64,000 bases of DNA from Dehalococcoidia bacterium (GCA_034423575.1 DAOUIF010000084.1:2040-66039), one strand, 5' to 3'; shown: positions 20,329 to 38,429, numbered from the stretch's first letter. Program-made: numbers and translations. The notes: generated from the sequence alone by a model not told the origin.

Positions 20329-20802
20329 TCACTCTTCGTGGATCTGCTGGTTGAGCCAGAGGTCGATGCCAATGATACCGATGGTTTCCATCTGGGTTTC
20401 CAGCCAGTCCACGTGCTCCTCCTCGGAGCGGATCATTTCTTGCAGGATGCCACGCGTGGTGTAGTCCTGCACCTGCTCGCAGTGGCTGATCGCGTCAACC
20501 AGTGCGCTCACGGCGTTCAACTCGGACTGCAGGTCCAGCTCCAGATCCTCCATCACCGACTCGCCGACCATCACCTGGTTGAGGCGCTGCAGATTGGGCA
20601 CACCCTCCAGGTAAAGGATGTGCTGAATGAGGTGCTGGGCATCTTCCATCTCTTCCAGACTCACGTCGCGGAACCGCTTGTAGAGGCGGTTGAATCCCCA
20701 GTTCTTGCACATCTCCGCCTGGATGAAGTACTGGTTGATGGCGGTGAGCTCTATGGTCAGCAGGTTGTTGAGGTGGTCGATAACTCCGTCTTTCGCTTTC
20801 AA
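20329..20802 (-). CDS. bfr: Bacterioferritin
   Basis: 157 aa with ELTAINQYF, E18/E51/M52/E94/E127/H130 and EEEHVDWLETQ. Position 54 is Asp rather than His. Confidence 0.93.
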   Translation of the reverse strand: MKAKDGVIDHLNNLLTIELTAINQYFIQAEMCKNWGFNRLYKRFRDVSLEEMEDAQHLIQHILYLEGVPNLQRLNQVMVGESVMEDLELDLQSELNAVSALVDAISHCEQVQDYTTRGILQEMIRSEEEHVDWLETQMETIGIIGIDLWLNQQIHEE

Positions 20803-21075: not shown

Positions 21076-21300
21076 CTAAGCCGCAGCCATTCCCGCACGC
21101 AATCCTCCCGCTCGCTCGGTTTTCATCAATTCCACCTGCACCAGCACGGCGACCTGCTCTATATCTTCGGCGCACCGACCGCAGCACTCGTCGTCGTCGA
21201 ACCCGAAAAACGCGCTTATCGATTCCGGCGAATCGATACCGGATCGGGCCGCGTCCACTGCTTCCGACATCGGCACTGCTTTACAAATGCACAAAAACAT
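21076..21300 (-). CDS. bfd: Bacterioferritin-associated [2Fe-2S] ferredoxin
   Basis: MFLCICKAV...CCGRC (CxC...CxxC), immediately upstream of bfr. Confidence 0.85.
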   Translation of the reverse strand: MFLCICKAVPMSEAVDAARSGIDSPESISAFFGFDDDECCGRCAEDIEQVAVLVQVELMKTERAGGLRAGMAAA

Positions 21301-21345
21301 GGGTCTCACCGATATAGGCCAGTCGTTTGCCTGCACGTGTCGGTC

Positions 21346-21381: not shown

Positions 21382-22094
21382 TCAGCGATTAGCCGAGCAG
21401 GAAAGCAATGCGCTCCATGCACATCGGCACAATTCAGGCAAGGGGCGCCGGTTTCCAGCGTTCCGGCCGGGGTGAGCGGGCCACCGCCTCCAATAAAACC
21501 CCACTCCCGGACCCATCCGGCGCCCGACTTTGGTGACTTGCCAACTCGGCTGAAGCGGACGATTTCGGTCAAATCGTCGCTCTCGTACCCGATTGGGGAT
21601 TGAGGCAGCGATACAGAAACCGCGCACACCGTTCGCGTTGGATGAATGCTGGCTTGACTTGCACATGCGTCTGCATTAAATTGATCGCGCTGTTTCAACG
21701 TTGGAACGCTTATCGCTGTGTTGTGATGCGCCTTGTTTGGCGTCGATTCATTGCGCACAGCCAAGCCGTCGTACCGGCCAGAGGGAAGGGCCGGCCCCGA
21801 CGCCAATCGCGGATCAGTCAGCTCCGCCGCCAAGGACTTACGAGCGGATATACAGGGACCTCCGACGGTGTCGGGGCTCCGTGAAAGGGAGCAATGTTGG
21901 CTGATCAATTCGCGATCTGACCGATCGCCGGCAGCGAGCAACGAATCGGGGCGGGCCCGCGTGCGCGAACACTGCCATCCGCATCTGTGGCAGCGCGATC
22001 CCCCCGAACGTGTCAGATCCTGGGTACAGGCTGCTCGAGTACTGCCGTAGCAGAGGAAAACCGGCCGCTCGTCGATGCTTCGGAGATTATTGCG

Positions 22095-22829
22095 ATGTCG
22101 AACGCAGCGAACAACAGCATTTCAACGCATGCCGCATCAACCGACCGGTCGGCGCGCTGGGGCGGCTTATTCCTCGTGCTGACCGCGTTGGTTACCGCCG
22201 TCATGGTGTACGCCCGCGTCGCCTCAGAAGCCGACCAACAAACGCTGGCGGCATCCCTGGTGGCTGTGGCCGAGAACCGGGGCATATACACCCTGTTTGG
22301 CGCGAGCCGATTGGTCTCAGGGCTGACGCTTCTCCTGGCCGGTTGGTTTCTGCTGCGAACCTGGATAATCCGCGACCGATGGGCCACACCCTGGGTGCCG
22401 TATCTGTTCGCCATTTCGGGGGTGTGTACCATCGTATCCGGGGCCGGCGCGCTGCTCATCGCTTTCCAAGCCTGCGCCGCCGGAGCCGACATCTCGGGGA
22501 TGGGAGCCGTGGACAGCCTGCGCTGGATCTCGGGAAAGGTAGGGTTCACCGCCGCCGGCCTGGCGCTGATCGTCGCGGCATGGTTCCAGTGGCGGGTGGG
22601 AGGCGTGCTGCGCAAGGTGTCGCCTGCGTCCGCAATCCTCGGGGTCGCGATGCAATTTATCTGGCTGGAGGCGGCGACCATAGTCCATCCCATTGTGGGT
22701 GGCGTGTTCTTCCTGTGGCTCCTGTTGATTAGCGCGATGCTGGCAACCGGCCAGGTGGAAAAGCACTTCGTGAACCGGTACGGCGACGAAACACACGATG
22801 CGGCCGCCGAACCCGCTGGGGGATCGTAG
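22095..22829 (+). CDS. Hypothetical multi-pass membrane protein
   Basis: About six hydrophobic helices; ggag RBS before ATG 22095. Confidence 0.7.
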   Translation: MSNAANNSISTHAASTDRSARWGGLFLVLTALVTAVMVYARVASEADQQTLAASLVAVAENRGIYTLFGASRLVSGLTLLLAGWFLLRTWIIRDRWATPWVPYLFAISGVCTIVSGAGALLIAFQACAAGADISGMGAVDSLRWISGKVGFTAAGLALIVAAWFQWRVGGVLRKVSPASAILGVAMQFIWLEAATIVHPIVGGVFFLWLLLISAMLATGQVEKHFVNRYGDETHDAAAEPAGGS

Positions 22830-22835
22830 CGCGGG

Positions 22836-23105
22836 ATGCCGGCCACCAAACGACAAACGTGTCCCTGTTGCGCGGAGACCAACAATATTGTGAGCCGCCA
22901 CCGCAGGCGGGGCGAGACGGTGGTCCGAGAGCGATTCTGCAGAGGGTGCCGTCAAAGGTTCTACACCGTGGCGCGCGACGATGAAACTGAGCTTCATTGC
23001 GGCAATCCCTTCGCGTCCAGAGCGCGGACGCGGCCCCCGGCTGCGACTTACCCTGGGGAAGCAACGACGCCCGGCGAACGGTTCGAGGCCACGTCCGACG
23101 GGTGA
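22836..23105 (+). CDS. Small zinc-ribbon protein (resembles the NrdR N-terminal ribbon)
   Basis: CPCC...VVRERFCRGCRQRFYT, 6 bp after the previous stop. Confidence 0.45.
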   Translation: MPATKRQTCPCCAETNNIVSRHRRRGETVVRERFCRGCRQRFYTVARDDETELHCGNPFASRARTRPPAATYPGEATTPGERFEATSDG

Positions 23106-23170: not shown

Positions 23171-24076
23171 ATGATGAGATGCGTCGTGACTGGAGGGTGC
23201 GGATTTATCGGCACGCACCTGGTTGACCGGTTGGTGCGCGATGGTCATCAGGTCATAGTGCTGGACGATCTGTCCACCGGCAATCTGGAGCGGCTCAACC
23301 CGTCGGCAAAACCTCTATATTGTTCCGTGACGGATGCGGACACGCTGGCATCCGCAACGGAGGGCGCCGAGGTGGTGTTTCACACGGCAGCCTGGGCTCG
23401 CATAGCTCGTTCGGTTGACGATCCGGTGGGCACACACGAGGTCAACGTTACGGGGACCCTGAACGTGCTGCGGGCGGCGCAGGTCAACGGCGTGCGCCGG
23501 GTGATCAACTCGTCCTCGTCCAGCGTGTACGGCGACCAGCCGACTCACCTGATGTGCGAGGACATGACGCCAAACCCCAAGTCGCCTTACGCTTTGCAAA
23601 AGCTGATGGGCGAGCAATACGCGAACATGTTCGCGGGGCTGTTCGGCATGAGTATCGTGTCTCTGCGCTATTTCAACGTTTATGGGCCCGGGCAGCCGTC
23701 AGAGGGGCAGTATTCGCTGGTGATTCCGCGGTTCCTTCGCATGCGGCGCGAGGGCAGTCCTCTGACCGTTTACGGCGACGGCGAGCAAACCCGCTCCTAC
23801 ACCCATGTGTCGGACATAGTGGAAGCCAACGTACTTGCCGCCAGCTCAGACCTGCCGCCGGCATGTCATGTCGCTTTGAATATAGGCACCGCACAGGAGA
23901 CTTCGGTCAATGACATCGCCGCTGCTATCGGCGGTCCGGTTCAGCACATTGTGCCCAACCCCAGGCGAGAGTTTGAAGAGGCCCGGAAAGCAGCCGACTG
24001 CTCACTGGCCCGGTCGGTCATCGGATGGGAGCCGCGGGTCGCGTTCGCCGACGGCATCAAGGACCTTCTGCAATAG
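23171..24076 (+). CDS. NAD-dependent epimerase/dehydratase (extended SDR, UDP-sugar epimerase-like)
   Basis: VTGGCGFIG, SSSSVYG, YALQK (YxxxK), LRYFNVYGP and GDGEQTRSYTHV. Confidence 0.92.
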   Translation: MMRCVVTGGCGFIGTHLVDRLVRDGHQVIVLDDLSTGNLERLNPSAKPLYCSVTDADTLASATEGAEVVFHTAAWARIARSVDDPVGTHEVNVTGTLNVLRAAQVNGVRRVINSSSSSVYGDQPTHLMCEDMTPNPKSPYALQKLMGEQYANMFAGLFGMSIVSLRYFNVYGPGQPSEGQYSLVIPRFLRMRREGSPLTVYGDGEQTRSYTHVSDIVEANVLAASSDLPPACHVALNIGTAQETSVNDIAAAIGGPVQHIVPNPRREFEEARKAADCSLARSVIGWEPRVAFADGIKDLLQ

Positions 24077-25486
24077 CCGTTGCCCACCGCTGTTGATCTC
24101 GGACCACACAGTCATCGCTGTGGCGACGACGAATGCCGCCCACCACGCGTAGGTAAGCTGCCAGGTTTCGGCGCTCCACAAGGTGTAGAGCGGGAACAGC
24201 CCAGCGGTGGCCTGAAACGGCACGAATGTCATATCGAAGGGATCCACCGCGATGGTGATTTCTCTGATTCGTCCAGCGTGAGCCAGGCCGGCGGTGAACG
24301 CCAGAGTGCATGCGCCCATCAGTGCAACTACCATCTTCATGGCCGATGAGCAGCGACCGATCAGCAAGGTCAGCGGAATGACGAACAGTGGCAGCACGGT
24401 CAGCATCGTGCGACCGGGGAACCACCAGCCCATCATGGTAATCGCGACGAAGGTCGCGATCAGCAGTTGTATGGCGATCAGGATAAGCACCAGGCGAAGC
24501 TCCCACGTGCGAATAATCAACAACGCCAATGCGGGAGCCGCCGCAAGCAACAACGGCGCCCACCGGCCGATCCCGAAGCGGCGGTCCAGGAACAAACCCC
24601 AGATGCGATAGTAGCGCTCCTCGAATGCTAGGTGGCCGCCGAGGATCTGGGCCGTGCCCAAATCCGCATAGACCGAATTGACCCCATAGGGAGTCAGGCC
24701 ACCGAAGACATGCAGGTGGAACCAGATAAACACAGTCGCCGATGGGACGCCCGCCGCTAGAAGGGAGGTCCGTCCTGCCCAATCGGCCCGCAACAGGAAA
24801 TAGGCGGCCACCGGGACCGCCAGCACCGTGTACTTGGAACCCAGCCAGCACAGCGCGGTCAGCGCAACCGCGAGAAACAAGGCGTCGGAGATACCCGCCC
24901 GGTTGCGCCGGGTGGCAATCAGCAGGGCCACGACCAATGCCAGGGCCCCCGGAAACTCGGGGTAAATCTCCGTAGAGTAGACGAACGCCGTCGCCGTCAG
25001 GCCTACTCCCAGGGTCGCCGCCCAGCAGATCACCCGGTGTCCCGTGAGCCGGTCGGCCAGCACGAAAGCCAGCGACATGGTGACCGCAGCCATGAGCATC
25101 AGCTGGACTTGGGTTCCGAGCAGTCCGCCCAGGCCGAACCCAGGGATCACCAAAACTGACAGCCCCGGGTTGTGCGGGCTGAGCAACCGACCATCGGCCG
25201 TGGGAACCGACTGGTACCACAGGCCGTCGGCATGGTCGAAGAACCGCTCGTAGGACTTGGCGTCATATTGGTTTTGCAGGTCCAAATCGCCATCGACCAG
25301 GAGGCTCTGGGTGGTCAGCAGGTAGAATGGCTCGTCCCCGGTGATGGTCGCGCCCCGACTGGCACGAAGGTCAATCGAGAACGCGTACGCAACGGATAGC
25401 AACAGGAAGAGAGCCGCCGCCCACAGCAGCAGCTCCCTTCCGAGAATGATTCGGCGTATGTTGCGTGGAATAGTGCTGGTGATCAC
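24002..25486 (-). CDS. GT-C-fold multi-pass membrane glycosyltransferase-like protein
   Basis: TGDEPFYLLTTQSL acidic first loop, YSTEIYPE, more than 10 hydrophobic helices; GTGA overlap with the upstream gene. Confidence 0.65.
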   Translation of the reverse strand: MITSTIPRNIRRIILGRELLLWAAALFLLLSVAYAFSIDLRASRGATITGDEPFYLLTTQSLLVDGDLDLQNQYDAKSYERFFDHADGLWYQSVPTADGRLLSPHNPGLSVLVIPGFGLGGLLGTQVQLMLMAAVTMSLAFVLADRLTGHRVICWAATLGVGLTATAFVYSTEIYPEFPGALALVVALLIATRRNRAGISDALFLAVALTALCWLGSKYTVLAVPVAAYFLLRADWAGRTSLLAAGVPSATVFIWFHLHVFGGLTPYGVNSVYADLGTAQILGGHLAFEERYYRIWGLFLDRRFGIGRWAPLLLAAAPALALLIIRTWELRLVLILIAIQLLIATFVAITMMGWWFPGRTMLTVLPLFVIPLTLLIGRCSSAMKMVVALMGACTLAFTAGLAHAGRIREITIAVDPFDMTFVPFQATAGLFPLYTLWSAETWQLTYAWWAAFVVATAMTVWSEINSGGQRLLQKVLDAVGERDPRLPSDDRPGQ

Positions 25487-26709
25487 GGCAAAACGCCGGT
25501 CTCCCTGAGAAGCCTGAGAGTGCCCTCGAGGTCGTTGAGGTTCCCCAGGTCCACGTCGGGTGGGTCAAGCGACGCCATCGGCGGCAGATCGCCCTCTGGT
25601 TGGACCCCGGCAGACACTGGGTACTCCTTGATTTCCTGCGCAAAGTAGGTTTGCGCCGGCTCTGTCAGCAGGAACTCCACGAATATCTCGGCTATGTCCT
25701 GGTTTTCAGAGGGTTCCAGGATGCCAACGCCGGCCACCAGCACCAGCGCGCCGGGGTCGCCGTTGCCGATGTAGTGGTTGCGGGCGCCGAACCCCTGCCC
25801 GTGCTCCTCCAGGAACCGCTCGAGATAATAGTGGTTGACGAACCCAACATCCACTTCGCCGGCCGCCGCGGCGGTCACAATGGTCGTGTTGTTGGGATAG
25901 TCAACCGCATCGTTGTCCCTAATTCCCTCCAGCCATTTACGCGCCGCGTCCTCGCCGATGGTGAGGCGCAGGGCCGTAACGAAAGCCTGGAAGGAACCGT
26001 TGCGCGGCGCCCAGCCGACACGTCCCCGCCATTCCGGAGCGGTGAAATCCAGGATGGAAGGCGGCAGGTCAGCCTCCGGGTCAATGGCGTCGGTATTGTA
26101 GATAATGGTGCGCGCCCGGCCCGATGTGCCGATCCAAAGGCCGGCCGGCGAGCGGAACCGCGGGTCCACCTTGTCCAACGTTTTTTGGGGGATTTGGGCA
26201 AGCATGCCCGAATCGGCCAGGATGCCCAGCGAGCCGGGGTCCTGCATGAACACCACGTCGGCCGGAGTATTGCCGCCCTCTTCCAGCAGCGTCGCCGCGG
26301 TGGACGCGCTGCCGGCGTACTTGACCCTGATGTCAATCCCGGTTTGCTCGCCAAAGGCCAGCAGCAGGGGATGGACGAGGGTCTGCGACCGGCCCGAGTA
26401 AACTGTGAGAGTACGGTCGGTGTAGTCGGGCGGCAACGGCCGGGCCGGAACGGCGGTCGGCGCCGGGGCCGGGGCCACGGGCGCCGCCGTCGGCGCGGAG
26501 ACTACCGCGGCCGGCTGGGTGGCCGGTGCGGGAGCCGCAGAGGGCGGTGACTTGGCGCCCCCGGCCGACGGCGAGGCAGTGCTGCCCCCGCCGCAGGCCA
26601 TCAGCGCTATCGCCACCAATAACGTTGCCAGTATCAGCAGAAACTGCGGACCCGCCTGGCGACGAAGATGAGCCATTCTGGTCTTCTCCCTGTGTTTGGG
26701 ATTGATCAT
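25483..26709 (-). CDS. Fe(III) ABC-transporter substrate-binding lipoprotein (FutA/AfuA-like)
   Basis: Lipobox ALMAC, Pro/Ala linker, YSGR, EGGNTPADV, NGSFQAF and VNHYY (paired Tyr ligands). Confidence 0.88.
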   Translation of the reverse strand: MINPKHREKTRMAHLRRQAGPQFLLILATLLVAIALMACGGGSTASPSAGGAKSPPSAAPAPATQPAAVVSAPTAAPVAPAPAPTAVPARPLPPDYTDRTLTVYSGRSQTLVHPLLLAFGEQTGIDIRVKYAGSASTAATLLEEGGNTPADVVFMQDPGSLGILADSGMLAQIPQKTLDKVDPRFRSPAGLWIGTSGRARTIIYNTDAIDPEADLPPSILDFTAPEWRGRVGWAPRNGSFQAFVTALRLTIGEDAARKWLEGIRDNDAVDYPNNTTIVTAAAAGEVDVGFVNHYYLERFLEEHGQGFGARNHYIGNGDPGALVLVAGVGILEPSENQDIAEIFVEFLLTEPAQTYFAQEIKEYPVSAGVQPEGDLPPMASLDPPDVDLGNLNDLEGTLRLLRETGVLP

Positions 26710-29354
26710 TAGTAGCCGGTTATGAGGTCGTCATCCGTCAACAAGAGCGCCGACGCAACCCCGTTCAGGGCGGCCAGCGCCGCGTCGCGCGACGCCTCGG
26801 TGATATCGTCCGCGTCGGCGGTGACGTAGGCCATGATGGTCTCGTCAGCCGACGGATCGGCCGCCGCGACCTCAGGCTGGATCGACTCGTAGAATGCCAG
26901 GGCTTCCACCTGGTGGGTGCCCGGGTCCTTGCCTTCCGCGACGTCCGCCTGTGACACGCCAATGTACCTGACGGTAGCCAGGTAGAAAATGGCGTTAAAG
27001 CGCGAGAACACTTCCTGGGCCGCAGCATTGCACGCGGCGGCGTCGCCGTTTTCGGCGGCCTGACGCACGCGTTCGAAGGCTTCCCTCAGCGGGATGTCGA
27101 TGGTGCCCTCGCGGCCGAAGTTGCCTTCACGGCTGCGGGCCAGCCTGGACAACGAGTAGGGGTAACTCCCATCGTCGCCCGGGAGGCCGACATAGATCCC
27201 CCAGCCCTCGTCGACATCACCCGAGTCCAGGTCGGCACAGCCGCCGATCACATAGTGCTTGGACCAGTGATAGAGGATCCGAAGAATGCCCTTGTTGATG
27301 GCTTGGCGCTTCTGGGCATCGGTCCAATCGGCAGCGGCGCCGCGTCCGCGTACCGTGTTGTTGATGGACGAGTCCAGGAAGGTACCGGACCCATAGTACT
27401 CGGTTGCCAGGGGGAATTCCTCGCCGCGTTCGGGATCACGAGCAAAGCCGCGGAGGGTCTTGCTGCGGACGCCGATGCGGGTGTGATGCCCAACCTCGTA
27501 CAGCAGGAAGATTTCTGCTGCGGGCAAAGGCTTCCCGTCATTGATGACGTTGGTCAGCGCCGCGATCTCCTGGTAATCCGAGGGGATCTTCTGATAATGC
27601 TCTCGGTTGGTTGTGGCGTGGTAGTACCCGTCGGACGGGCTCGGGACGCTCCGGTCCGTCTCGTGAGGGAGATTCACCGGGATGAACACGCTGGAGGAGA
27701 GGTCCAGATCGCCGGTGTAAGGTGACGCCGCGCCGCCGGGCCCGTCGCCAGTGTCGGAGGTGTACTCAGTGATGAGGTCGCTGTCGTCCAGCATGAGCGC
27801 CGAGGCAGTGCCGTTGAGCGCAGCGAGCACGTCGTCACGCGCGGTAATTGAAATCTCGCTGCCCTCGGCGGTCAGGTAATCCATGATCGTCTCGTCGGCA
27901 GCCGGGTCCGCCTTGGCGACATCGGGCTGAATCGACTGGTAGAACGCCAGGGCTTCGACCTGGTGGGTTCCCAGGGCGTCTCGGTCACCGGCCTGTGCAT
28001 CATCCAGCACGCGCCCGACGTACCTGACGGTGGCGAGGTAGAACATGGCGTTGAAACGCGAGTAAACCTCGTTGGTCGCGATTTCCAGAACGTCGGCATC
28101 GCCGTCGTCAGCGGCCTGCCGGGCCCGGTCCATGGCCTCGCGCAACGGGATGTCAATGGTGCCTGTCCGCCCGAAGTTGCCCTCGCGCGCCTGGGCCAAG
28201 GCGGCCAAAGAGTTCGGATACCGCCCGTCAACTTCCTCGCCAACGTAGACAGCCCAGGCTTCGTCAATCAGGCGGGAGCTCATGCGATCCTGGCCGATGA
28301 TCATGTAGAACTTGGCCCAGTGGTACAGAATACGGAGCATGCCCTTGTTGACCGCCTGGCGCTTCTGAGCGTCGGAGTAGTCGGCTGCTTCGCCACGCCC
28401 ACGGACTACATTCTCGATCGGATCGTCAAGGAAAGTATCGGAACCATAGAACTCGGCCGACTCAGGGTAATACCTGGATGGTGTGGAACCGGCCGCGAAG
28501 CTCCGGAGAGTGCGGCTCTGCGGGCCGAGACGTGTGTGCGAACCGGCTTCGTACAGGAGCCAGATCTCAGCCGCAGGGAAGGGCTTGCCCTCCTTGATCA
28601 CGTTGGTCAGCTTGGCTATTTCCTGGTAATCCGTGGATATCTTTGCGTAGATCTCCCGGTTGGTTGTGGCGGTGTAATACCCGTCGGAAGCGGTGGGACC
28701 CTCGGTCTCATAGCTCAGGTTGACAGGTATCCTCAGCCCGCCGGCTTCGACCTGGGCCGTCATCGCGCCGGTGGCAGTGCCCGACGCCGAACCGGTGTGC
28801 GTTCCAGTGCCGGATGCCGAGGCGGTGCCCGTTCCCGTGTGAGTGTGGGTGCCAGTGCCCGTATGAGTGCCAGTGCCGGTGCCGGTTCCGGTCCCTGTCC
28901 CGGTAGCCGTGCCAGTCCCGGTGCCAGTGCCAGTCCCGGTACCCGTGCCCGTTCCAGTACCCGTTCCCCCGGAATCGCCGCCGATCACCTGTATGGTGGG
29001 ACGGTCTTCACCCCGGCGAACTGCCTCATCAGCCGTCGCCTGAGCGTTGGCTGCGGCTTCCCCGGCCGCCGACGCGGCCGCCTGAGCCGTTTCTGCAGCC
29101 GCCTGGGCCTGGTTCGCCCTGGTCTCTGCTGCAGCCGCCCGGGCTTGCGCCTCGGCGGCCTGCCCACTGGCCTGCGCCAGCTGGGCCTGGGCCGCGGCGA
29201 TCGCCGCATCCAGGGCCGACGTGTCGGGCGCGGGTGCGGGCTGTGGCTCCGGCTGACACGCCAGCGCCAGCACAAGCACCATGGATACCGCCAATCCGGC
29301 GATCCAATGCGTGCGTCGAGGGCTTCTTCCCAACTTCGTCATGTGATGAAGCAC
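26709..29354 (-). CDS. Lipoprotein with two tandem FEA1-like (low-iron-inducible) domains
   Basis: Lipobox LALAC, Ala-rich coil and (GT)n linker, then two ~320-aa repeats sharing IPVNL..SDGYY.ATTNRE, LLYE.G.HTR, QKRQA.NKG.LRILYHW, DE.W..YVG, REGNFG and QVEALAFY. Confidence 0.7.
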   Translation of the reverse strand: MLHHMTKLGRSPRRTHWIAGLAVSMVLVLALACQPEPQPAPAPDTSALDAAIAAAQAQLAQASGQAAEAQARAAAAETRANQAQAAAETAQAAASAAGEAAANAQATADEAVRRGEDRPTIQVIGGDSGGTGTGTGTGTGTGTGTGTGTATGTGTGTGTGTGTHTGTGTHTHTGTGTASASGTGTHTGSASGTATGAMTAQVEAGGLRIPVNLSYETEGPTASDGYYTATTNREIYAKISTDYQEIAKLTNVIKEGKPFPAAEIWLLYEAGSHTRLGPQSRTLRSFAAGSTPSRYYPESAEFYGSDTFLDDPIENVVRGRGEAADYSDAQKRQAVNKGMLRILYHWAKFYMIIGQDRMSSRLIDEAWAVYVGEEVDGRYPNSLAALAQAREGNFGRTGTIDIPLREAMDRARQAADDGDADVLEIATNEVYSRFNAMFYLATVRYVGRVLDDAQAGDRDALGTHQVEALAFYQSIQPDVAKADPAADETIMDYLTAEGSEISITARDDVLAALNGTASALMLDDSDLITEYTSDTGDGPGGAASPYTGDLDLSSSVFIPVNLPHETDRSVPSPSDGYYHATTNREHYQKIPSDYQEIAALTNVINDGKPLPAAEIFLLYEVGHHTRIGVRSKTLRGFARDPERGEEFPLATEYYGSGTFLDSSINNTVRGRGAAADWTDAQKRQAINKGILRILYHWSKHYVIGGCADLDSGDVDEGWGIYVGLPGDDGSYPYSLSRLARSREGNFGREGTIDIPLREAFERVRQAAENGDAAACNAAAQEVFSRFNAIFYLATVRYIGVSQADVAEGKDPGTHQVEALAFYESIQPEVAAADPSADETIMAYVTADADDITEASRDAALAALNGVASALLLTDDDLITGY
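28768..28970 (-). repeat. Coding low-complexity Gly-Thr/Thr-His dipeptide repeat
   Basis: Encodes GGTGTGTGTGTGTGTGTGTATGTGTGTGTGTGTHTGTGTHTHTGTGTASASGTGTHTGSASGTAT with degenerate codons. Confidence 0.9.
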
Positions 29355-29387
29355 TTTGCCTATCCTCCTGGTCGATGATTTGCTCGA

Positions 29388-32300
29388 CTACTTGCTCAGC
29401 ATCTCCCGGAGCATCCCGGTGGGGACGCGCCAGAGGTACTTAGGACCGATGAACGAACTGCCCTGGGTGCGCCGCCGGTACGCAACAGGTACTTCCCGCA
29501 TCCGCATACCCTTTTTCAGCAGATCGAGGGTGAGCACCTGGGCGTAGTTGTAATCGTGGATGATTTCGGCGCACTCCAGCGCCCGGCGCGAGAAAGCCCG
29601 GAACCCGGTCTGCCCATCGGTGATACGGCGTCCAGTTGCCAAACTGAGCAGGCCGGTGAACGCGATATTGCCGATGCGTCGGAACACCCGTTGATCCGGG
29701 CGGTTGTCGAGGTAGCGCGATCCCAAAACGTAATCCGCTTCCCCGGACTCGATGGGCGCCAGCAGGTCGGGGATCTGCTCCGGCGGATACTCACCGTCGG
29801 CGTCCACGTACACGGCGGCCCGCGCGTCCAGTTCGTTGGCGGTGGCCAAGCCGGTGCGCAGCGCGGCGCCCAGGCCCCGGTTGCGCTGGTGCGAAACGAC
29901 CACATCAGCACCGTGTTGGTGCGCGATTTCCGCCGTGCCGTCAGTGGATCCGTCGTCCACCACGATCACCTTGAGGTCAGGCCGGTCGTTCCGAGGGATC
30001 CGGGCCAGTGTGGCCGGCAGGTTCTCCGACTCGTTGTAGGCGGGAACGATCACGGCGACGGGTCGGGTCATTTCATCGGCATCGGGTATCCCGAGGACTT
30101 GACCCACCGACTGTGCCGGCGGTTCGACGCCAAGGTAGTAGGCGATGGTGGCGGTCACGTCCATGACCGATTTGGGGTCTTCGACGGACCCCTGCAATTC
30201 AACGCCCTTTCCCCACATGATGCAGGGCACATACCGCTCCGTCGGGCCCATGTGGCCGTGCCCGCCGATGCCGATACCCTGCCCATGATCGGCGGTGATG
30301 ATGACCGTCGCGCCTTCCAGGTAGCCGATGGAATCGCACCACCCCAGGAAGTCCTCGATGTGGCGGTCGCTGTCCTCGATCTTGGCGAGGTACTCGGAGT
30401 TGTAGCTACCCCGGGCGTGCCCGGTCTGGTCAACGCTGAGGAGTTGCAGGACGATCAGGTCGGGGTCGTCCCGTTCAATCACCGCCTTGGCCCTCGCTTT
30501 CAGGGCATCATCGATCTCGTCGTTGTTGGTGACAGCAGTGACGGTTTCAATGTCGGTTTCGCCGAAGGCATCCACGAGGTGGGCGATCCCCACCAGCTTC
30601 CCAGTCAAGCCGCCGGCCCGCAGCGCGTCGAAGATGGTCTCGCACTTGACCCCCAGGCTGGGCACGAAATTGCTGGACATCCCGTGGACGCGCGGCGGCG
30701 CTCCGGTGAACATGGAGCTGAACCCCGTCACGGTGCGTGCCGGGTACACGGTAGACGTATCGACGTAATCGACGCCCTCCTGGCGGAGCTTGTCGATAAA
30801 CGGGGTGTCGGCTTCCTCGAGACGGTCGAACCGGCAGCCGTCGATGACTATGGTAATGAAGCGGCGCGATATTCTCCTGCCGGCCTCGGCCCGCAGACGA
30901 GTCGGCACCAGGGACGGCGCCGGAGGCCAGGTGAAGAACCACTGGTGCAGCAGCAAGGCGGTTATCGCGACACCGAGTGCGAAGCCTTCGACCGCCGCAA
31001 AGGTCCAGACTGTGGGACTTGCCACCAACATCTGGAATGCGAGCGCCAATATAACGAGCTTGGGTATCTGCTCCAGGAAGTTGCCGCTCGTCGGGTCGGG
31101 GTTTTCCAGCACCAGCCGCCAAAAGCGGGTGAAGTTGAACCACGACGTCCCGATGCGCAAGTGGTAATAGATGGTGCCCCACAGAACGATGGTGAAGGTG
31201 AGATACACCCCCAGGATCAGGCCGATTGCGATGAAATCAAAGAACCGGAACGCGGCCAGGAAAATTCCCAAGTACACCCACAGTGCAATCCGCAATTTCA
31301 AAGGGAAATCGAAGCGGTAGAAGATCACCAGCATCGGGGCCAGCGCCAGCAGCGCGAGTCCGGCCCGTAGCCAGTAGCCGCCGTCAGTGAGGTGGGGGAT
31401 GCTCAGCAGCCCGAGAATCCCCAAGGTGAACACCGGCGTGAATGGCTTGCCCTCGTTGAGAACGTTCCAGGCACGGGCGGCGAATATCTCGAACCGGGAG
31501 GCGTGTTTGTCGCCTTCTGCCGAACCTCGGAGAGCCCCCAATCCTTTTAGGGGAATGGCGTCGCGAACCGCCACCAGCGTGAACGCGGCTGCCACCGTGT
31601 ACGAGTACGCGAATTTGAGGCCGTGGGTGAGGACCGCCAGCGCCAACCCTTCCTGCCAGGGCACGCCCATGGCGAACAGCGCGCCGGTCATGCTGGCCTC
31701 ATATACGCCAATGCCGCCGGGCGTCACGTGAAACACCTGGAACAGGATGGTGAACGCCGTGACACCGATCAGGGCGGCCACGGACAGTTCCACTCCCAGC
31801 GCCTCCGCGGCCACCAACAGCACGCCAGCCTCGAGCGCCCAACTGGGGAGAGTCCACAGCGTCGCCCTGAGGATGCGTCCTGCGGAGATCTGGGCCAACT
31901 GCGTTCGCAAACCGTTTATGCTGCCCTGCAGGAATTGGGGCAAGACGCGGTCGAAGGTACGGTAGCGCAGCAATGCCAGGGCTGTCCCCGCGCCGGCCAC
32001 AACGACGACCGGGATCGCCAGGCTCCGCAACCAATCTGCCCGGCTGTCCAGCGAGGTCACCAACGCGCCACACACTCCGGCGATCAGGATCAGGCATCCG
32101 AAGTCCAGGAGACGCGCAACCGCAGTGGTGGCGGCCGCTTCGCTGAGGGGTATGCCGCGGCGGGCCGCCAGCAGTGGCCGGGCGGCCTCGCCCAACTTGA
32201 ACGGGAGCACGTGGTTGGCGAGGAGCGCCGCCTGGAGACAGGTGAACAGCCCGAACATTCCAGACCTAGTGGTCATCAGTTGGCGCCACGCCACCGCGCG

Positions 32301-32558
32301 TAGTGCGAACGCCGCCGTATAGGTGACCACGAGCACCGCGAGCAAATCCGCACGCCGGGCCAGCGTGGACACTGCGACGGCCAATTCGGACCAGTCGGCC
32401 AGCCACCACACCAACACTGCAACGGCGACGGTCAGCACTAATCCGATGAGTACGCGCGTGCCCTTACCTAACCCGAGGAATGCCTGTCCGTAGGAGCGCT
32501 CCGCTTCGGCACGGGTCACTCCAGCTTCGTGGAAGTCCGTTTCTGTCGACCGCCTCAT
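29388..32558 (-). CDS. Fusion: LPG-synthase-type transmembrane (flippase-like) domain + alkaline-phosphatase-superfamily phosphodiesterase + GT2 polyprenol-phosphate glycosyltransferase
   Basis: ANHVLPFKLGE, VARLLD and TPGGIGVYE (flippase-like domain). VIDGCRFD, PARTVTG, DQTGH and TADHG (AlkP). VIVPAYNE, DDGSTDGT, DADG and TDGQTGFRA (DPM1-like GT2). Start taken as ATG 32558. Confidence 0.85.
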   Translation of the reverse strand: MRRSTETDFHEAGVTRAEAERSYGQAFLGLGKGTRVLIGLVLTVAVAVLVWWLADWSELAVAVSTLARRADLLAVLVVTYTAAFALRAVAWRQLMTTRSGMFGLFTCLQAALLANHVLPFKLGEAARPLLAARRGIPLSEAAATTAVARLLDFGCLILIAGVCGALVTSLDSRADWLRSLAIPVVVVAGAGTALALLRYRTFDRVLPQFLQGSINGLRTQLAQISAGRILRATLWTLPSWALEAGVLLVAAEALGVELSVAALIGVTAFTILFQVFHVTPGGIGVYEASMTGALFAMGVPWQEGLALAVLTHGLKFAYSYTVAAAFTLVAVRDAIPLKGLGALRGSAEGDKHASRFEIFAARAWNVLNEGKPFTPVFTLGILGLLSIPHLTDGGYWLRAGLALLALAPMLVIFYRFDFPLKLRIALWVYLGIFLAAFRFFDFIAIGLILGVYLTFTIVLWGTIYYHLRIGTSWFNFTRFWRLVLENPDPTSGNFLEQIPKLVILALAFQMLVASPTVWTFAAVEGFALGVAITALLLHQWFFTWPPAPSLVPTRLRAEAGRRISRRFITIVIDGCRFDRLEEADTPFIDKLRQEGVDYVDTSTVYPARTVTGFSSMFTGAPPRVHGMSSNFVPSLGVKCETIFDALRAGGLTGKLVGIAHLVDAFGETDIETVTAVTNNDEIDDALKARAKAVIERDDPDLIVLQLLSVDQTGHARGSYNSEYLAKIEDSDRHIEDFLGWCDSIGYLEGATVIITADHGQGIGIGGHGHMGPTERYVPCIMWGKGVELQGSVEDPKSVMDVTATIAYYLGVEPPAQSVGQVLGIPDADEMTRPVAVIVPAYNESENLPATLARIPRNDRPDLKVIVVDDGSTDGTAEIAHQHGADVVVSHQRNRGLGAALRTGLATANELDARAAVYVDADGEYPPEQIPDLLAPIESGEADYVLGSRYLDNRPDQRVFRRIGNIAFTGLLSLATGRRITDGQTGFRAFSRRALECAEIIHDYNYAQVLTLDLLKKGMRMREVPVAYRRRTQGSSFIGPKYLWRVPTGMLREMLSK

Positions 32559-32765
32559 CGTTCTCTCTGTTTCCTGACGTGATCCAAGAACGGCAGCCAC
32601 TCTGTACGCATCTATCAAAGATGCGGCCTTGCCGGGAGGAGGGTGCCGACAAGGCCGGTAGCCCGGGAGGGGCGAATACCGGAGGGTCACCGCCGCTATA
32701 GCAACCCACCGATGTATTTCAGATCAGTTAGCCACTAGCCCACTCGTCGTGTACATGGCTCGCAT

Positions 32766-32794
32766 AAATTAGTGCATACGAAACCAAATGTCAA
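32766..32794 (-). promoter_or_regulatory. sigma70 promoter of the leftward iron/glycosylation operon with candidate operator
   Basis: Minus strand TTGACA (32789-32794)-N17-TAATTT (32766-32771); plus-strand TTAGTGCATACGAAA at 32769-32783. Confidence 0.55.
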
Positions 32795-33145
32795 TACCGA
32801 CAAATGGTTGGATTTGGCGCTACTCTAGAAGGCGCAATTTGCGGACATAGGGTCCGATGGTCAATCTGAGGTTTGCCTCGAGGAACATATCACGATCAAA
32901 GACACGAAAACCGCGAGTCGATGACGACGCTGAGAGGCGAGGCTATCGCGGCGCGGTGGCTGTAATCACTCGACTGACCGCCCGCCAAGTACCGCGACAG
33001 CAGATGATGAAATGCAATATCCGGAGAAAGCACGATCCGAAACAAGCCAAATCGCTCTGCTGGCTACCTAGTGCCCATTAACCCTGCGTTCCCGTACGGA
33101 ATCACGTGCCTCTTGCGTGGGAGGGCAAATCATACGGTGGGGTGC

Positions 33146-33174
33146 TTGACATACCAAATCAGGATATGCAAAAT
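33146..33174 (+). promoter_or_regulatory. sigma70 promoter of the imelysin operon
   Basis: TTGACA-N17-CAAAAT about 90 bp upstream of the ggagg RBS and ATG 33266. Confidence 0.5.
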
Positions 33175-33265
33175 GCCGGCCGTCGGTCCAATTACGCTGT
33201 TATTGCAGGGCCACAATTTCATTGGCAAAAGGTCAACAAAACGACCGCCTCGGAGGTACATCCAG

Positions 33266-34492
33266 ATGCAGCTGAATTTGCGACGTGCTTGGATAATGGT
33301 CCCGGGTCTGGCGCTATGCCTGGCGTTGGGAGCGGTGGCCTGCGCCAGCGAGCCACCTCCGGCTCCGACAGCTGAGCCAGCTGCCATGATGATGGAAGAG
33401 CCGAAGGTGGACGTCGACGCCCTCAAAGTGGAGGTGGTCGCCCACTATGCCAACGGCGTACATGGTCTCTATTCCCAGAGCCTGGCTTCGGCCAAGGTTA
33501 TGGATGGCGCCATCGACGCGTTCATCGCTGACCCCAATCCGGCCAGCCTCGAAGCAGCCAAGCGCGCCTGGCTGCACGCCCGCGACGATTACGGACCCAC
33601 CGAGGTGTTCCGGTTCTACGGGGGGCCCATTGACAACGAAGAGAATGGCCCTGAAGGTCTGATCAACGCCTGGCCCATGGACGAGTCGTACATCGATTAC
33701 GTGGAAGGCAACCCGACGGCTGGCATCATAAATATGCCGGACGAGTATCCGACCATCGACGCGGAGCTCATCATCTCCCTCAATGAGGAAGGCGGCGAGG
33801 AAAACGTCTCCACGGGCTGGCATGCCATCGAATTTCTGCTCTGGGGGCAGGACCTGAATGAAGGTGGTCCTGGCGCGCGTCCCGTAGAGGACTTCACGAC
33901 CAACGACAACGCCGACCGGCGGGCCCAGTACCTTGCGGTCGCGTCCGACACGCTGATCGGTCACCTGCAGGACCTAGTGGACGCCTGGGCGCCGGGCGGC
34001 AACAACTACCGGGCCGAGTTTCTGGCCAAGCCGGCCGATGACGCCCTGGTCGACATCATCACCGGCGCCGGCGCTCTCAGCAAGGGCGAACTGGCCGGGG
34101 AGCGCATGTTTGTGGCCTACTCGGAGAGGTCCCAGGAAGACGAGCATTCCTGCTTCTCCGACAACACCGTCGCCGACATCGTCGGCAACGCGATCGGCGT
34201 GCGCATGGTGCTGACGGGCGACTACGGCGTGGTTGTCGGGCCCGGCATCATCGACCTGTTCGCCGCCGACAACGAGGCTCTGGCTGATCGTCTGGTCAAC
34301 GAGACCGCGATGGCGGTGACCATGGCCCGCAACATCCCCGATCCTTTCGACCAGCATCTGACCGACACCGCGTCGGACAGCGCGTTCGGCCGGTCCCAGG
34401 TGCTGAGCACAATCGAGGCCCTGGAAAAGCAGGCGGACACCATAGTTGAAGGGGCGGCGGCTTTCGGCTTCACCATCAACACCTCGGTGTAG
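33266..34492 (+). CDS. Imelysin-family iron-regulated lipoprotein (IrpA-like)
   Basis: Lipobox GAVAC, INAWPMDESYIDYV, TGWHAIEFLLWGQD, GELAGER and QEDEHSCFSDNT. Confidence 0.9.
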   Translation: MQLNLRRAWIMVPGLALCLALGAVACASEPPPAPTAEPAAMMMEEPKVDVDALKVEVVAHYANGVHGLYSQSLASAKVMDGAIDAFIADPNPASLEAAKRAWLHARDDYGPTEVFRFYGGPIDNEENGPEGLINAWPMDESYIDYVEGNPTAGIINMPDEYPTIDAELIISLNEEGGEENVSTGWHAIEFLLWGQDLNEGGPGARPVEDFTTNDNADRRAQYLAVASDTLIGHLQDLVDAWAPGGNNYRAEFLAKPADDALVDIITGAGALSKGELAGERMFVAYSERSQEDEHSCFSDNTVADIVGNAIGVRMVLTGDYGVVVGPGIIDLFAADNEALADRLVNETAMAVTMARNIPDPFDQHLTDTASDSAFGRSQVLSTIEALEKQADTIVEGAAAFGFTINTSV

Positions 34493-34507
34493 CTGTCCTT
34501 TATACGC

Positions 34508-35961
<1,454 letters not shown>

Positions 35962-35965
<4 letters not shown>

Positions 35966-37065
35966 CCCACCCACGGATCTTTGTTCTGCTGCCGTTGCTA
36001 GCGCTGGCGCTGCTGTTGCCGGTCGCGTGCTCCAGCGCACCGCCACCTTCCAAGCAAGACGTGATTGTCAGTTTGACCGGCGATCTGATCGTGCCGCGGT
36101 TCCAAACGGTAGCTGCGGAGACCGGCCAGCTTCGGAACGCCCTCCATTCCCTGTGCGCCAATCCCTCCGGAGAAACGCTGGATGCCGCGCGGACCGCCTG
36201 GCGCGAAGCGAGGGCCCCCTGGTTGCGGTCACAGTCGATGTGGTTCGGCCCGGTGATGGACAGACGCTCCCGAATCCTGGTGGACTGGTCGCCTGTCGAC
36301 CCTGAGCGCATCGAAGGCACACTGGCCAAACGCGAGTCCGTTTCGGCTAGCGATATACGGGAGTTTTTCGGCTCGACACAGCGTGGGCTGGGAGCCATCG
36401 AATACGTGATCTTTGCCCCGGACTCGGAAGCCCTGGCGTCTCTGGGTGATCCTGCCGGGATACGTTGCCAATACCTGACCGCATTGGGCGACGTGGTGGC
36501 GGATGAGATATCGGGCGTGTTGGCGGACTGGACGGGCGACGGGTCGGCTGAAGGTGGCTATGCCGGCTATTTCAAGGGCACGGCCGGAGTCGCGCTCGTT
36601 GATCAGCAGGCGGTCGACGAAGTGGTCCGGACCTCGGTGTTCATCACCCGCAGCATCAACGACATGAGGCTGGGCAAGGCGCTGGGCGCGGATGGTGTTG
36701 AACCCGATCCGTCGGCCATCCCCGGCGGCAATGGCCACAACGCCGTCACCGACCTGCGCAACCAGGTATTGGGGATGCAGGACACGTACCTGGGCGCCGG
36801 CGTCGAGGAATCTTTGGGCATTAGCGCACTGGTGCAGGGTGTCTCAAAGGAGGCCGACGAGCGGATGCGTGGGCATTTCACCGCAGCGCTGGAGTCGATC
36901 GACGGGTTGCAGGAGCCCTTGCAAGCGACGGTCGCATCCGACCCGGTACCGGCTCGCCTCGCGCACCAGCGGATCCAGGAACTCCAGCGCACGCTCAACA
37001 CCGAGGTGGTCAGCCTCCTGGGCGTTACCGTCGGGTTCGCCGACACCGACGGCGACGGCGGTTAG
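35962..37065 (+). CDS. Imelysin-family lipoprotein (second, His-less type)
   Basis: Lipobox PVAC, WFGPV and QRGLGAIEYVIF; coupled to the di-heme gene. Confidence 0.8.
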
Positions 37066-38429
37066 GGACTCTCCGAGTTCTTTTTGCCGCTGACTGCCGC
37101 ATCGTCCGGCTCGTAGGGCAACACCCAACGCTTGGGCGCGATGGCGGACCGAACGGACGCCAGGTCCACGTCGGGATCGATCAGCCGAGCATTCGGTCGT
37201 CCGTTGAAGGCGACGAACGCGTCGGCGTTCACAGTCACGTGCGTAGAACCGTCTTCCGCTAAATCCCTGGCGATCATACGGGCGGTCTGGTGGATCATGT
37301 CCGGTTGGAAAGACATTCTTTCCACCTGAAGCGGGGTCAAATATTGGTCCGGTTCGATGAGCCAGGACTGGCCGGTTTCGACGTCCCGCACGCGGTATTG
37401 CACAAAGCCAACCTTTTCTGAAAGCATCACTCGCCACGCGAAGCGGTAACCTTCCTCGTTCCACCGGACATTCCCGGGATAGGCGAAGTGGCGCAGGGGC
37501 AACGCCAACTGGACCACGGCGAACATCGCCAACGCAATCAGGGCCGCCCGGGCGCGCCATGGTTGGTTGGCGGGCTGTGGGGGCTCGCCGCGAGGGCGTC
37601 GGTCGGGCATGCGTATCAGCCGCACCAGCCGTCGCGGCCAACCGGGGTCGAAAAATATCAGGGACAGCCCGATCATCAACCAGGGGAATACGCCAAGCTG
37701 CGGGAACAGAATCCAGGTCGCTAAATGGAAAGCTACGAGAGCGGCGTAGGCGAATGGCCGGGTGCGTCTCCACAACAGCGAGGGAACGATCGCCAGGTCG
37801 AACAGGGCGCCGCCCCAACTCATGACATATGCTGCCCAGGTTTCCTGAATCAGCCGGCCGATTACCGGCAAGTCGCCGTGCTGGTAGAGCCAGATGCGCA
37901 TGGGCAGCGCGTGGAACAGCCAGTCGGGGTTGATCTTGGCCAGGCCCGCGAACAAGTACACGACGGCGATCTGCCCGCGCAGCGTCCAGACAACCCAGAG
38001 CGGTGATGAACCCCGCCCAAAGGGCAGGACGGCCAGCAGCAAACTCACCAGGCTCATCAAGTAGTGATGATTGAGGTAGGTGGCGCTGTCGATCAGTTCT
38101 ACATAGGTGAACCCAACGCAGAACAGGGCAGCACACAGCCGTGGACGGAAACCCGCCGCGATGCCCACGCTCAACGCCCCTAGCGCGATGAAGTGGGCGT
38201 GCATCCCCCAGCCGGGCCACGGTCTTACCCAACCGAATCCCAGGTAGGTGAAATGGTGGTCCGGCTCCACGTAAAGCGGGCCGATCCATCCGTGAGCGAA
38301 AAAGCGGGCGACGACCAGGACGCCGAGCAGACCGAAGATGGCCCGGAAGGTTATGATCGATGCGCTATCAACCTGCTCGCTCGCGTTATATCTGGCGATT
38401 TTTAGCCAGACAGCCGGATTGATGGTCAT
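37062..38429 (-). CDS. HTTM-domain / vitamin K-dependent gamma-carboxylase-like membrane protein
   Basis: FRAIFG, YLNHHYL, YLFAGLAKINPDWL, GYRFAWRVML and MSFQPDMI. Confidence 0.85.
   Translation of the reverse strand: MTINPAVWLKIARYNASEQVDSASIITFRAIFGLLGVLVVARFFAHGWIGPLYVEPDHHFTYLGFGWVRPWPGWGMHAHFIALGALSVGIAAGFRPRLCAALFCVGFTYVELIDSATYLNHHYLMSLVSLLLAVLPFGRGSSPLWVVWTLRGQIAVVYLFAGLAKINPDWLFHALPMRIWLYQHGDLPVIGRLIQETWAAYVMSWGGALFDLAIVPSLLWRRTRPFAYAALVAFHLATWILFPQLGVFPWLMIGLSLIFFDPGWPRRLVRLIRMPDRRPRGEPPQPANQPWRARAALIALAMFAVVQLALPLRHFAYPGNVRWNEEGYRFAWRVMLSEKVGFVQYRVRDVETGQSWLIEPDQYLTPLQVERMSFQPDMIHQTARMIARDLAEDGSTHVTVNADAFVAFNGRPNARLIDPDVDLASVRSAIAPKRWVLPYEPDDAAVSGKKNSESP

Follow-up and report, generated by a model that had tools for sequence, protein, structure and literature searches.

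Predicted lipid-linked glycosylation genes bracketing iron-capture lipoprotein genes in Chloroflexota and Actinomycetota, with a GT-C-fold protein of an unnamed family

Why should genes for lipid-linked sugar transfer be interleaved with genes for the capture of ferric iron? The question is raised by a stretch of 64,000 nucleotides from a Dehalococcoidia bacterium (GCA_034423575.1 DAOUIF010000084.1:2040-66039; here, the window), where four genes are packed closely on the minus strand at positions 24002–32558. In the direction of reading, they encode a fusion protein with flippase-like, AlkP-type and GT2 domains, a lipoprotein related to FEA1, an Fe3+-binding lipoprotein, and a 494-residue membrane protein, referred to as M494 (Table 1). 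The fusion gene and the FEA1-like gene are separated by a 33-nucleotide spacer with AGGAGGA inside, the stop codon of the FEA1-like gene overlaps the start codon of the binding-protein gene (TAATG), and the latter gene overlaps that of M494 (GTGA). The gene for a nucleotide-sugar epimerase is convergent to the operon, sharing 75 nucleotides with the 3' end of the M494 gene. A preliminary description of the window had listed this gene order, the gap and both overlaps, the epimerase converging on the operon end, and Thr/Ser/Pro-rich linkers on both lipoproteins, and all of these were recovered. The reading that we favour, and hold slightly short of an even call, is that the operon serves the acquisition of Fe(III) and is equipped with a three-component extracytoplasmic glycosylation system of its own, the tether of the co-encoded lipoproteins being the likeliest acceptor.

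At the level of sequence, M494 stands apart from the named families. It has no Pfam or NCBIfam match at E ≤ 0.01, its profile retrieves only noise from the PDB sequences, and none of the 33 scanned members of its family matches any named GT-C family, even at E ≤ 10. Its database relatives are all unnamed or annotated as "hypothetical," and the family comprises 3438 cluster representatives at E ≤ 1e-3. An AlphaFold2 model built from 33 close homologues had a pLDDT of 49.5; the alignment was then widened with a clade of approximately 30% identical Actinomycetota proteins, yielding a model with a pLDDT of 92.6 and a pTM of 0.92. When this model was compared with the PDB using Foldseek, ranks 1–31 were occupied exclusively by GT-C-fold proteins, with probabilities of 0.95–1.00 and TM-scores of 0.19–0.50 (both normalisations). 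The top match is AftB (E = 7e-5), followed by ArnT; ALG12/3/9, the STT3/AglB oligosaccharyltransferases, EmbA-C, AftA/D, DPY19, Pmt4, PimE, and PIG-U are also present. Thus, the GT-C assignment of the preliminary description, for which a Foldseek comparison with PMT, ArnT, and AglB had been proposed, is not recovered by sequence but is borne out by fold, with ArnT, STT3/AglB, and Pmt4 found among these 31 ranks. In 132 sequences with 27–85% identity, the motif D51-E52-P53-x-Y55 is invariant and comes after the first transmembrane (TM) helix, where the helix of the first extracytoplasmic loop begins; the other invariant residues are H105, Y175-P176-E177, W214, R294, and G353-x-W355-x-x-G358-R359. 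The modelled fold and the motif support M494 as a GT-C-fold protein outside any named GT-C family. Its context, namely, a dolichyl-phosphate-mannose-synthase-like GT2 domain and a flippase domain that are adjacent or fused to it, further predicts that M494 is the terminal glycosyltransferase, with a polyprenyl-phosphate-linked sugar as the donor.

The other membrane enzyme, the fusion protein, has an N-terminal flippase-like domain of approximately eight TM helices (PF03706, LPG_synthase_TM, E = 3e-36, 125.7 bits against a cut-off of 33.4, positions 2–296 out of 302), approximately six further TM helices, an AlkP-type domain (PF01663, E = 8e-24, 85 bits against a cut-off of 23; also PF00884 and PF01676), and a C-terminal GT2 domain (PF00535, E = 1e-30), all by Pfam, in accordance with the domain composition given in the preliminary description. 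The solved structures nearest to the GT2 domain are those of the Pyrococcus dolichyl-phosphate mannose synthase (5mlz, E = 1e-17) and ArnC (E = 8e-14), and its sequence contains the DxD-type motifs VVDDGS and VDADGE. Its best NCBIfam models are AglJ (106 bits against an equivalog cut-off of 325), the haloarchaeal dolichyl-phosphate hexose transferase (100 against 375), and PpgS (70 against 370), and these scores, like that for ArnC (56 against 529), fall far below the cut-offs. Judged by these comparisons, the class of the enzyme, which is polyprenyl-phosphate-sugar-synthase-like, is clear, and the sugar is not named by any equivalog.

In MprF, PF03706 constitutes the flippase domain; in the archaeal AglD, it is joined to GT2, and it adjoins genes of the PMT/STT3 type (PMC5898192; bioRxiv 10.1101/2022.03.11.483950); it also accompanies phospholipid glycosylation in the GpgSDF system (PMC12713373). 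By analogy, the N-terminal domain of the fusion protein is predicted to be a lipid flippase of the MprF/AglD type (UPF0104, PplT). The AlkP-type domain (residues ~555–830) is catalytically intact, and its joining to a polyprenyl-phosphate-sugar-synthase-like GT2 is an observation in its own right: all of the 75 homologues compared retain the motifs for metal binding and the nucleophile, IDGxR, YPxxT, DQTGH, DHG, and GGHGH, without change. Since there is no TM helix between the AlkP and GT2 domains, and a segment rich in Arg comes after the final TM helix, both domains are predicted to be cytoplasmic. On the same grounds, an extracellular AlkP domain, as in LtaS or EptA, was rejected. Hydrolysis of polyprenyl diphosphate or of a nucleotide sugar would be a guess at the role of a cytoplasmic AlkP domain. 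A TM-AlkP-GT2 arrangement lacking PF03706 occurs in a distant soil clade (L105); we know of no described function for it.

Relatives of M494 are themselves fused to GT2 (P0153), to PF03706 together with GT2 (P0188, P0129), and to an SDR epimerase (P0207), and the topology of these fusions is consistent with approximately 12 TM helices and both termini inside. As these fusions indicate, the GT2, the flippase domain, and the GT-C protein are functionally coupled to each other. A further candidate, P0130, annotated as a protein of 642 residues, was rejected as a true fusion of M494 with a cupredoxin, as a lipoprotein signal peptide with its lipobox and a Ser/Gly tract are found in its interior; gene calling has probably run two neighbouring genes together, which still demonstrates their adjacency.

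The epimerase encoded next to M494 belongs to PF01370 (E = 1.5e-58). Its comparison with the PDB (7ys8, E = 3e-55; WbpP/WbgU, E ~ 1e-44) places it nearer to hexose and N-acetylhexosamine 4-epimerases than to UDP-glucuronic acid epimerases or decarboxylases, and its gene adjoins M494 in 47 out of 80 Chloroflexota loci. UDP-glucose dehydrogenase (Ugd) is not found in the window, and the full-length enzyme is encoded in 33 out of 80 related loci. In many relatives, e.g., L001 and L002, the full-length ugd gene is divergent from the fusion gene, and in others a short Ugd-like gene of 265 codons is followed by a 165-codon open reading frame (L079, 11365–12660). There are hints here that the sugar may vary by lineage, being a uronic acid in some and a hexose or N-acetylhexosamine in others.

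The relation of these enzymes to iron is best seen across genomes. The synteny scan, with one genome taken per species, covered 80 Chloroflexota loci, mostly from Dehalococcoidia, with M494 identity of 47–79%, full 10-kb flanks being available for 67 of them. In these 67 loci, the fusion gene was found in 65, an FbpA-like gene in 65, and a FEA1-like gene in 62. The three components GT2, flippase, and GT-C, co-operonic in the window, are thus co-located in 65 out of 67. At least one iron gene stands beside M494 in all 67. The operon arrangement recurs in 80 species-level genomes, which is far beyond chance. In the deeper branches (L072–L074, L085), the order is fusion–(FEA1)–FbpA–FbpB–FbpC–M494, so that a complete ferric ATP-binding-cassette (ABC) transporter is encoded between the glycosylation genes. 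The window's binding protein has no such partners nearby: neither FbpB (permease) nor FbpC (ATPase) was found in the 64 kb, and in this lineage both have left the operon. In some relatives, FbpB and FbpC are encoded a few kilobases away, on the other strand.

The link extends to a second phylum. In a sample of seven Actinomycetota loci, with M494 identity of approximately 30%, M494 adjoins a GT2 gene and iron genes in all seven, the GT2 being fused to PF03706 in at least five. The genes of FbpA, FbpB, and M494 are adjacent and co-directional, overlapping in L004 and L090; they are accompanied by DtxR and FbpC in L004, L090, and L091, and by an epimerase in L086. FTR1, DtxR, and a cupredoxin are found in L005, L087, and L088, and L005 also has an imelysin, a DyP, a ferritin, and a Bfd. 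As a side observation, the public plus-strand gene call at 4394–5182 of L091 (262 residues, no Pfam match) looks spurious, tblastn identifying a GT2 on the minus strand. A synteny comparison had been suggested in the preliminary description, which also held that its proposal would fail if the glycosyltransferase genes were not linked to iron genes in other genomes; the linkage stands in two phyla (67/67 and 7/7 loci), and was not seen in the homology scan of a third clade from soil, considered below.

The same neighbourhoods might suggest that M494 is no glycosyltransferase at all, being instead the membrane component of an iron transporter, such as a permease or receptor partner of the FbpA-like protein. 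The gene of the binding protein immediately precedes M494 in 59 out of 80 loci, most of which encode neither a permease nor an ATPase within 10 kb, and M494 is the last gene of the actinobacterial FbpA–FbpB–M494 arrangement. We consider this very improbable: the top structural matches of M494 are all GT-C-fold proteins, transporters being present among the Foldseek matches only at probability ≤ 0.1, the acidic motif in the first loop is invariant, relatives of M494 are fused to GT2, the flippase domain, and the epimerase, and M494 coexists with complete FbpABC transporters in the deeper branches named above.

What could be the acceptor of the sugar? The FEA1-like protein of the window matches NCBIfam NF038033 in two stretches (E = 1.8e-51, 175 bits against a cut-off of 250); it has no match to Pfam Fea1 at E ≤ 0.01, and the search against the PDB sequences yielded low-complexity noise only, with no solved-structure match. 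A divergent orthologue, from L079, does match Pfam Fea1 (PF07692, E = 1e-31). The protein consists of a lipobox (LALAC), an Ala/Gln-rich spacer, the motif GEDRPTIQVIG (nucleotides 28980–29012), a (G-T)n tract of approximately 70 residues (nucleotides ~28752–28970, minus strand), and a tandem pair of FEA1-like domains, which share 63% identity and reflect an internal duplication. The spacer (residues ~35–115) is probably helical and is seen in the window's lineage only; in many relatives, the GEDRP motif sits directly behind the lipobox Cys.

The lipobox, GEDRPx[IV]x[VI][IV], and a subsequent tract of 30–100 residues of (G-T)n or (G-S)n form a recurrent tag, found in 72 out of 89 loci and in nearly every Chloroflexota locus. 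The tag is common to two unrelated families, the FEA1-like proteins and small cupredoxin-like lipoproteins; the tagged FEA1-like relatives are only 27–30% identical to the protein from the window, both kinds of tagged proteins are encoded in one operon in L074 and L080, and they are fused in L036. Since the (G-T)n tract of the window is encoded by imperfect, codon-diversified repeats, its coding sequence points to selection at the peptide level. Some tag tracts contain His-rich inserts (HTHTG, GHGHAHG, HAHDHDH), which could themselves bind metal. The actinobacterial imelysin and cupredoxin lipoproteins adjoining M494 also bear (G-S)n after the lipobox. The second lipoprotein of the operon, in turn, has a lipobox (LMAC) and a 56-residue linker rich in Ser, Thr, Pro, and Ala; its residues 100–407, that is, the full mature domain, align with solved ferric-binding proteins (7w3w, E = 6e-76; HitA, E = 5e-61; FbpA; E-values up to 1e-49), and its NHYY aligns with their NNYY, which contains the Tyr-Tyr iron ligands.

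Taking these data together, the following sequence of events may be proposed. The epimerase would make the nucleotide sugar, UDP-glucose dehydrogenase being also involved in many relatives; the GT2 domain of the fusion protein would load the sugar onto polyprenyl phosphate at the cytoplasmic face of the membrane; the fused MprF/AglD-type domain would flip the lipid-linked sugar; and M494 would transfer it to an acceptor outside the membrane. The likeliest acceptor would be the membrane-proximal Gly-Thr/Gly-Ser tether behind the GEDRPxIxVI motif, the candidates being the FEA1-like protein here, the cupredoxin-like proteins in relatives, and possibly, in the lineage of the window, the FbpA-like protein with its Ser/Thr/Pro-rich linker. 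A tether bearing such sugars would be stiffer, better protected, or anionic. The parts, the GT-C fold, the coupling of the parts, the conserved link to iron genes, and the common tag are what the sequences show; we infer which lipid is the donor, which sugar is transferred and to what, and that iron regulates the operon. O-glycosylation of the tether is the best-supported acceptor model, favoured because the conserved GEDRP-(G[ST])n is common to FEA1-like and cupredoxin lipoproteins. There is a precedent in streptococci: membrane-associated proteins, lipoproteins among them, have disordered tethers rich in Ser and Thr that are O-glycosylated by GtrB/PgtC2 and the Pgf proteins, and this glycosylation guards the tethers against proteolysis (PMC12041528).

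Several observations, given here and in the next two paragraphs, weigh against such a reading. The linker of the binding protein is retained in approximately half of the Chloroflexota loci, the others having 2–7 residues past the lipobox Cys, and the linker is likewise 2–7 residues long in the binding proteins of the actinobacterial loci L004 and L086. Since approximately half of the loci lack it, as do Actinomycetota, it cannot be the conserved acceptor. Thus, of the pathway O-glycosylating the iron-capture lipoproteins that had been put forward in the preliminary description, the three enzyme parts, their coupling, and the link to iron are retained, and the binding-protein linker as the conserved acceptor is not. 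A search for the IdeR box, whose consensus is actinobacterial, found none in the window with five or fewer mismatches, the count being at or below that for shuffled sequences. The sequences throughout are metagenome-assembled genomes.

The same machinery might act on a non-protein acceptor, with M494 glycosylating a membrane lipid, a glycolipid, or an envelope polymer under iron scarcity, the remodelling of membrane lipids in response to iron stress having been the alternative in the preliminary description; for example, a uronic acid or another sugar could shift the surface charge or concentrate Fe(III) near the lipoproteins and transporters. We regard this as possible, if on balance unlikely. 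M494 has no soluble extracytoplasmic domain, which would suit lipid or glycan acceptors equally well, as in ALG proteins, PimE, AftB, and ArnT; among such all-membrane proteins, ALG3/9/12, PimE, and AftB use lipid-linked or polymer acceptors. The best-documented substrates of PF03706 flippases are modified phospholipids, as in MprF and GpgF (PMC12713373), modified lipids being flipped in MprF and probably in GpgSDF. Uronic acid is hinted at by the full-length Ugd of 33 out of 80 loci and the short Ugd-like gene of others, the link to iron holds without a Ser/Thr-rich linker on the binding protein (L004, L086, L090), and the scans of the third clade reveal no candidate for a protein acceptor close to M494. 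However, a lipid or polymer acceptor leaves unexplained both the presence of GEDRP-(G[ST])n on two unrelated lipoprotein families and the fact that, in two phyla, M494 adjoins genes of lipoproteins or transporters, is co-directional with them, and often overlaps them; besides, no Ugd is encoded in the window, and the epimerase that is encoded there is of the hexose/N-acetylhexosamine type by similarity.

The third clade of M494 was sampled in soil metagenome contigs (L103–L105, L112, L116, L122, L130, L135, L136, L140, and L143), one locus being also checked with Pfam. Here, the M494 gene is convergent with that of a TM-AlkP-GT2 protein. The homology scan of the flanks revealed no iron genes, the only hits being weak, generic matches to ABC ATPases and one cupredoxin-like match of 36%, and the motif scan of the flanks revealed no proteins with G[ST]-repeat tethers. 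Therefore, the machinery is not intrinsically iron-specific and could serve other acceptors. Judging from gene content, the core of the family is M494 with (AlkP-)GT2, and its link to iron is strong in two clades and not universal; the M494/AlkP-GT2 pair seems to predate the iron link or to exist independently of it. One could go further and suppose a general-purpose envelope or protein glycosylation system, merely located in, or co-regulated with, an iron island and having no specific role in iron uptake. Besides the pairing of M494 with AlkP-GT2 in the third clade, where the scans found no iron genes, the size of the family, with its thousands of cluster representatives (3438), favours this, as the contexts must be diverse. 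Nevertheless, we find it improbable: the link persists over two phyla and approximately 80 species even though the iron system varies among them (FEA1/FbpA, FbpABC, or FTR1/imelysin/DyP), and the glycosylation genes bracket the iron genes, with stop and start codons overlapping; neutral co-location is not expected to persist in this way.

Upstream of the fusion gene, a structured 5' leader lies behind a sigma-70-like promoter, whose −35 and −10 elements are conserved in the alignment of 16 loci. The leader block is near-invariant in 16 related loci, both of its flanks being variable; RNAalifold folds it into three hairpins with 29 pairs, three of them compensatory. The third hairpin is GC-rich, with the loop CCCUCCUCC, and has a U-containing tail behind it. 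In each of 17 loci, the covariance model detects exactly one copy of the leader, which invariably precedes the fusion gene, and the Rfam scan of the window at 20–40 kb, the leader included, produced no match. From its conservation, the leader is a candidate new cis-regulatory element. Its interpretation as an N-terminal coding extension starting from the GTG at 32690 was rejected, as the stretch from the block to the ATG varies extremely between loci and contains many indels. Nothing could be learned from short inverted repeats near the promoter. Regulation of the operon by iron is suggested by its neighbourhood.

This neighbourhood, at 20.3–39.2 kb, is by its gene content an iron island, composed of bacterioferritin, Bfd, the operon considered here, the imelysin-DHOR-imelysin operon, the HTTM-domain gene, and a DtxR/IdeR-family repressor (Table 1). 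The imelysin-DHOR-imelysin and HTTM set recurs beside the operon in several relatives, e.g., L001, L022, L037, and L039. Just upstream of the epimerase gene, at 21987–23105 on the plus strand, are an open reading frame for a 280-residue protein with multiple TM helices, which has no family match, and a small one for a Cys-rich, zinc-ribbon-like protein (22836–23105).

Table 1. Features of the window, with positions counted from its first nucleotide.
Feature	Position	Strand	Details
Bacterioferritin	20329-20802	-	PF00210 (Pfam)
Bfd-like [2Fe-2S] protein	21076-21336	-	PF04324 (Pfam)
SDR nucleotide-sugar 4-epimerase, GalE/WbpP-like	23171-24076	+	301 residues
M494, GT-C-fold membrane protein of unnamed family	24002-25486	-	494 residues, ~12 TM helices
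FbpA/HitA-type Fe3+-binding lipoprotein	25483-26709	-	408 residues
FEA1-related lipoprotein	26709-29354	-	881 residues; GTG start
Fusion protein	29388-32558	-	1056 residues; ATG start, TAG stop
Structured 5' leader RNA (predicted)	32610-32715	-	106 nucleotides; between promoter and fusion gene
Sigma-70-like promoter, TTGACA-N17-TAATTT	32766-32794	-	Read from sequence; upstream of fusion gene
Operon of imelysin lipoprotein, di-haem DHOR (DUF1111), and imelysin lipoprotein	33071-37065	+	PF09375, PF06537; divergent from main operon
HTTM-domain gene (vitamin-K-carboxylase-like)	37062-38429	-	PF05090; convergent with imelysin-DHOR-imelysin operon
DtxR/IdeR-family iron-dependent repressor with FeoA/SH3 domain	38463-39227	-	PF02742, PF01325, PF04023

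Among protein-targeting three-component systems, the streptococcal ones, GtrB with PgtC2 and Pgf (PgfS/PgfM1/PgfE/PgfM2), seem by analogy to be most like the system predicted here: a GT2 makes the undecaprenyl-phosphate sugar, and PgfE provides the epimerase step (PMC12041528). In contrast to them, the iron operons have a GT-C protein from another family, which is unnamed; instead of a small GtrA-like protein, a fused domain of the MprF/AglD type is the flippase; the fusion also includes an AlkP-type domain; iron-uptake genes surround the system; and the putative acceptors bear a specific GEDRP-(G-T)n tag, glycosylation being a prediction here. Gtr-type systems (GtrA/GtrB/GtrC, CsbB/YfhO, and the pentofuranose systems) follow the same logic of a polyprenyl-phosphate-sugar synthase, a flippase, and an extracytoplasmic GT-C protein, with auxiliary epimerases setting the sugar, as here (PMC11127046). 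Their targets are O-antigens, teichoic acids, and arabinan, and their genes are located in polysaccharide loci, whereas the genes described here are located among iron-capture genes; the flippase and GT-C families also differ, the flippase here not belonging to the GtrA family. The archaeal AglD shares the GT2–PF03706 fusion and has a GT-C-like membrane protein (PMT/STT3-like) in its conserved neighbourhood (PMC5898192). The domain order is reversed here, with PF03706 being N-terminal, additional TM helices and AlkP are present, and the host is bacterial; the low AglJ score (106 against 325 bits) and the context of iron uptake, rather than of S-layer N-glycosylation, also distinguish the operon from the archaeal system.

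ArnC/ArnT and the Rhizobium RgtE/RgtA-D proteins are a further parallel, as relatives of the operon likewise have Ugd, an SDR protein, an ArnC-like GT2, and a GT-C protein. The Arn and Rhizobium Rgt pathways perform Ugd-dependent, lipid-linked transfer of 4-amino-4-deoxy-L-arabinose or galacturonic acid to lipid A or the core. To our knowledge, the bacteria considered here are not known to have lipid A. The operon contains no ArnA formyltransferase/decarboxylase, ArnB, ArnD, or ArnE/F, and it encodes no aminotransferase, formyltransferase, or deformylase at all; with ArnA, ArnB, and ArnD absent, it is not an Arn pathway. As for the cargo, its homologues are the algal FEA1 and the diatom phytotransferrin ISIP2a, from which the FEA1-like protein differs in being a lipoprotein of bacteria, with its domains in tandem and with a G-T tether, and FbpABC/HitABC, where the FbpA-like domain aligns end to end with the solved structures, its gene being parted here from those of the permease and the ATPase. 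Our literature searches on FEA1 and bacterial lipoproteins, on GT-C and IdeR, and on O-glycosylation in Chloroflexi found no description of this association. Thus, what is new in comparison to the known systems is the GT-C family, the fused MprF/AglD-type flippase, the AlkP domain, the setting in an iron operon, and the tagged candidate acceptors.

In its widest form, the proposal is that the iron operons of monoderm Chloroflexota and Actinomycetota contain a dedicated O-glycosylation system, in which a new GT-C family decorates a portable GEDRPxIxVI-(Gly-Thr/Ser)n tag on phytotransferrin-like (FEA1) and cupredoxin-like iron-capture proteins, the glycan, possibly acidic in view of the Ugd genes of relatives, being needed to capture Fe(III) or to keep the tether intact, with control exerted by the lineage-specific leader RNA; taken as a whole, this is a doubtful, if conceivable, extension of what is seen. 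If the glycosylation model holds, it would join bacterial lipid-linked glycosylation with metal acquisition, two fields that rarely meet, and would provide the first functional handle on a large unnamed GT-C-fold family (3438 cluster representatives with no Pfam or NCBIfam model). It would offer parts that can be tested, namely, the sequon-like tag, the AlkP domain, predicted to be cytoplasmic, to which the polyprenyl-phosphate sugar synthase is fused, and the candidate regulatory RNA. The bacterial homologues of FEA1 and phytotransferrin are lipoproteins with a conserved tether, and the finding bears on how abundant environmental and sponge-associated Dehalococcoidia, with no siderophore genes in view, may obtain ferric iron.

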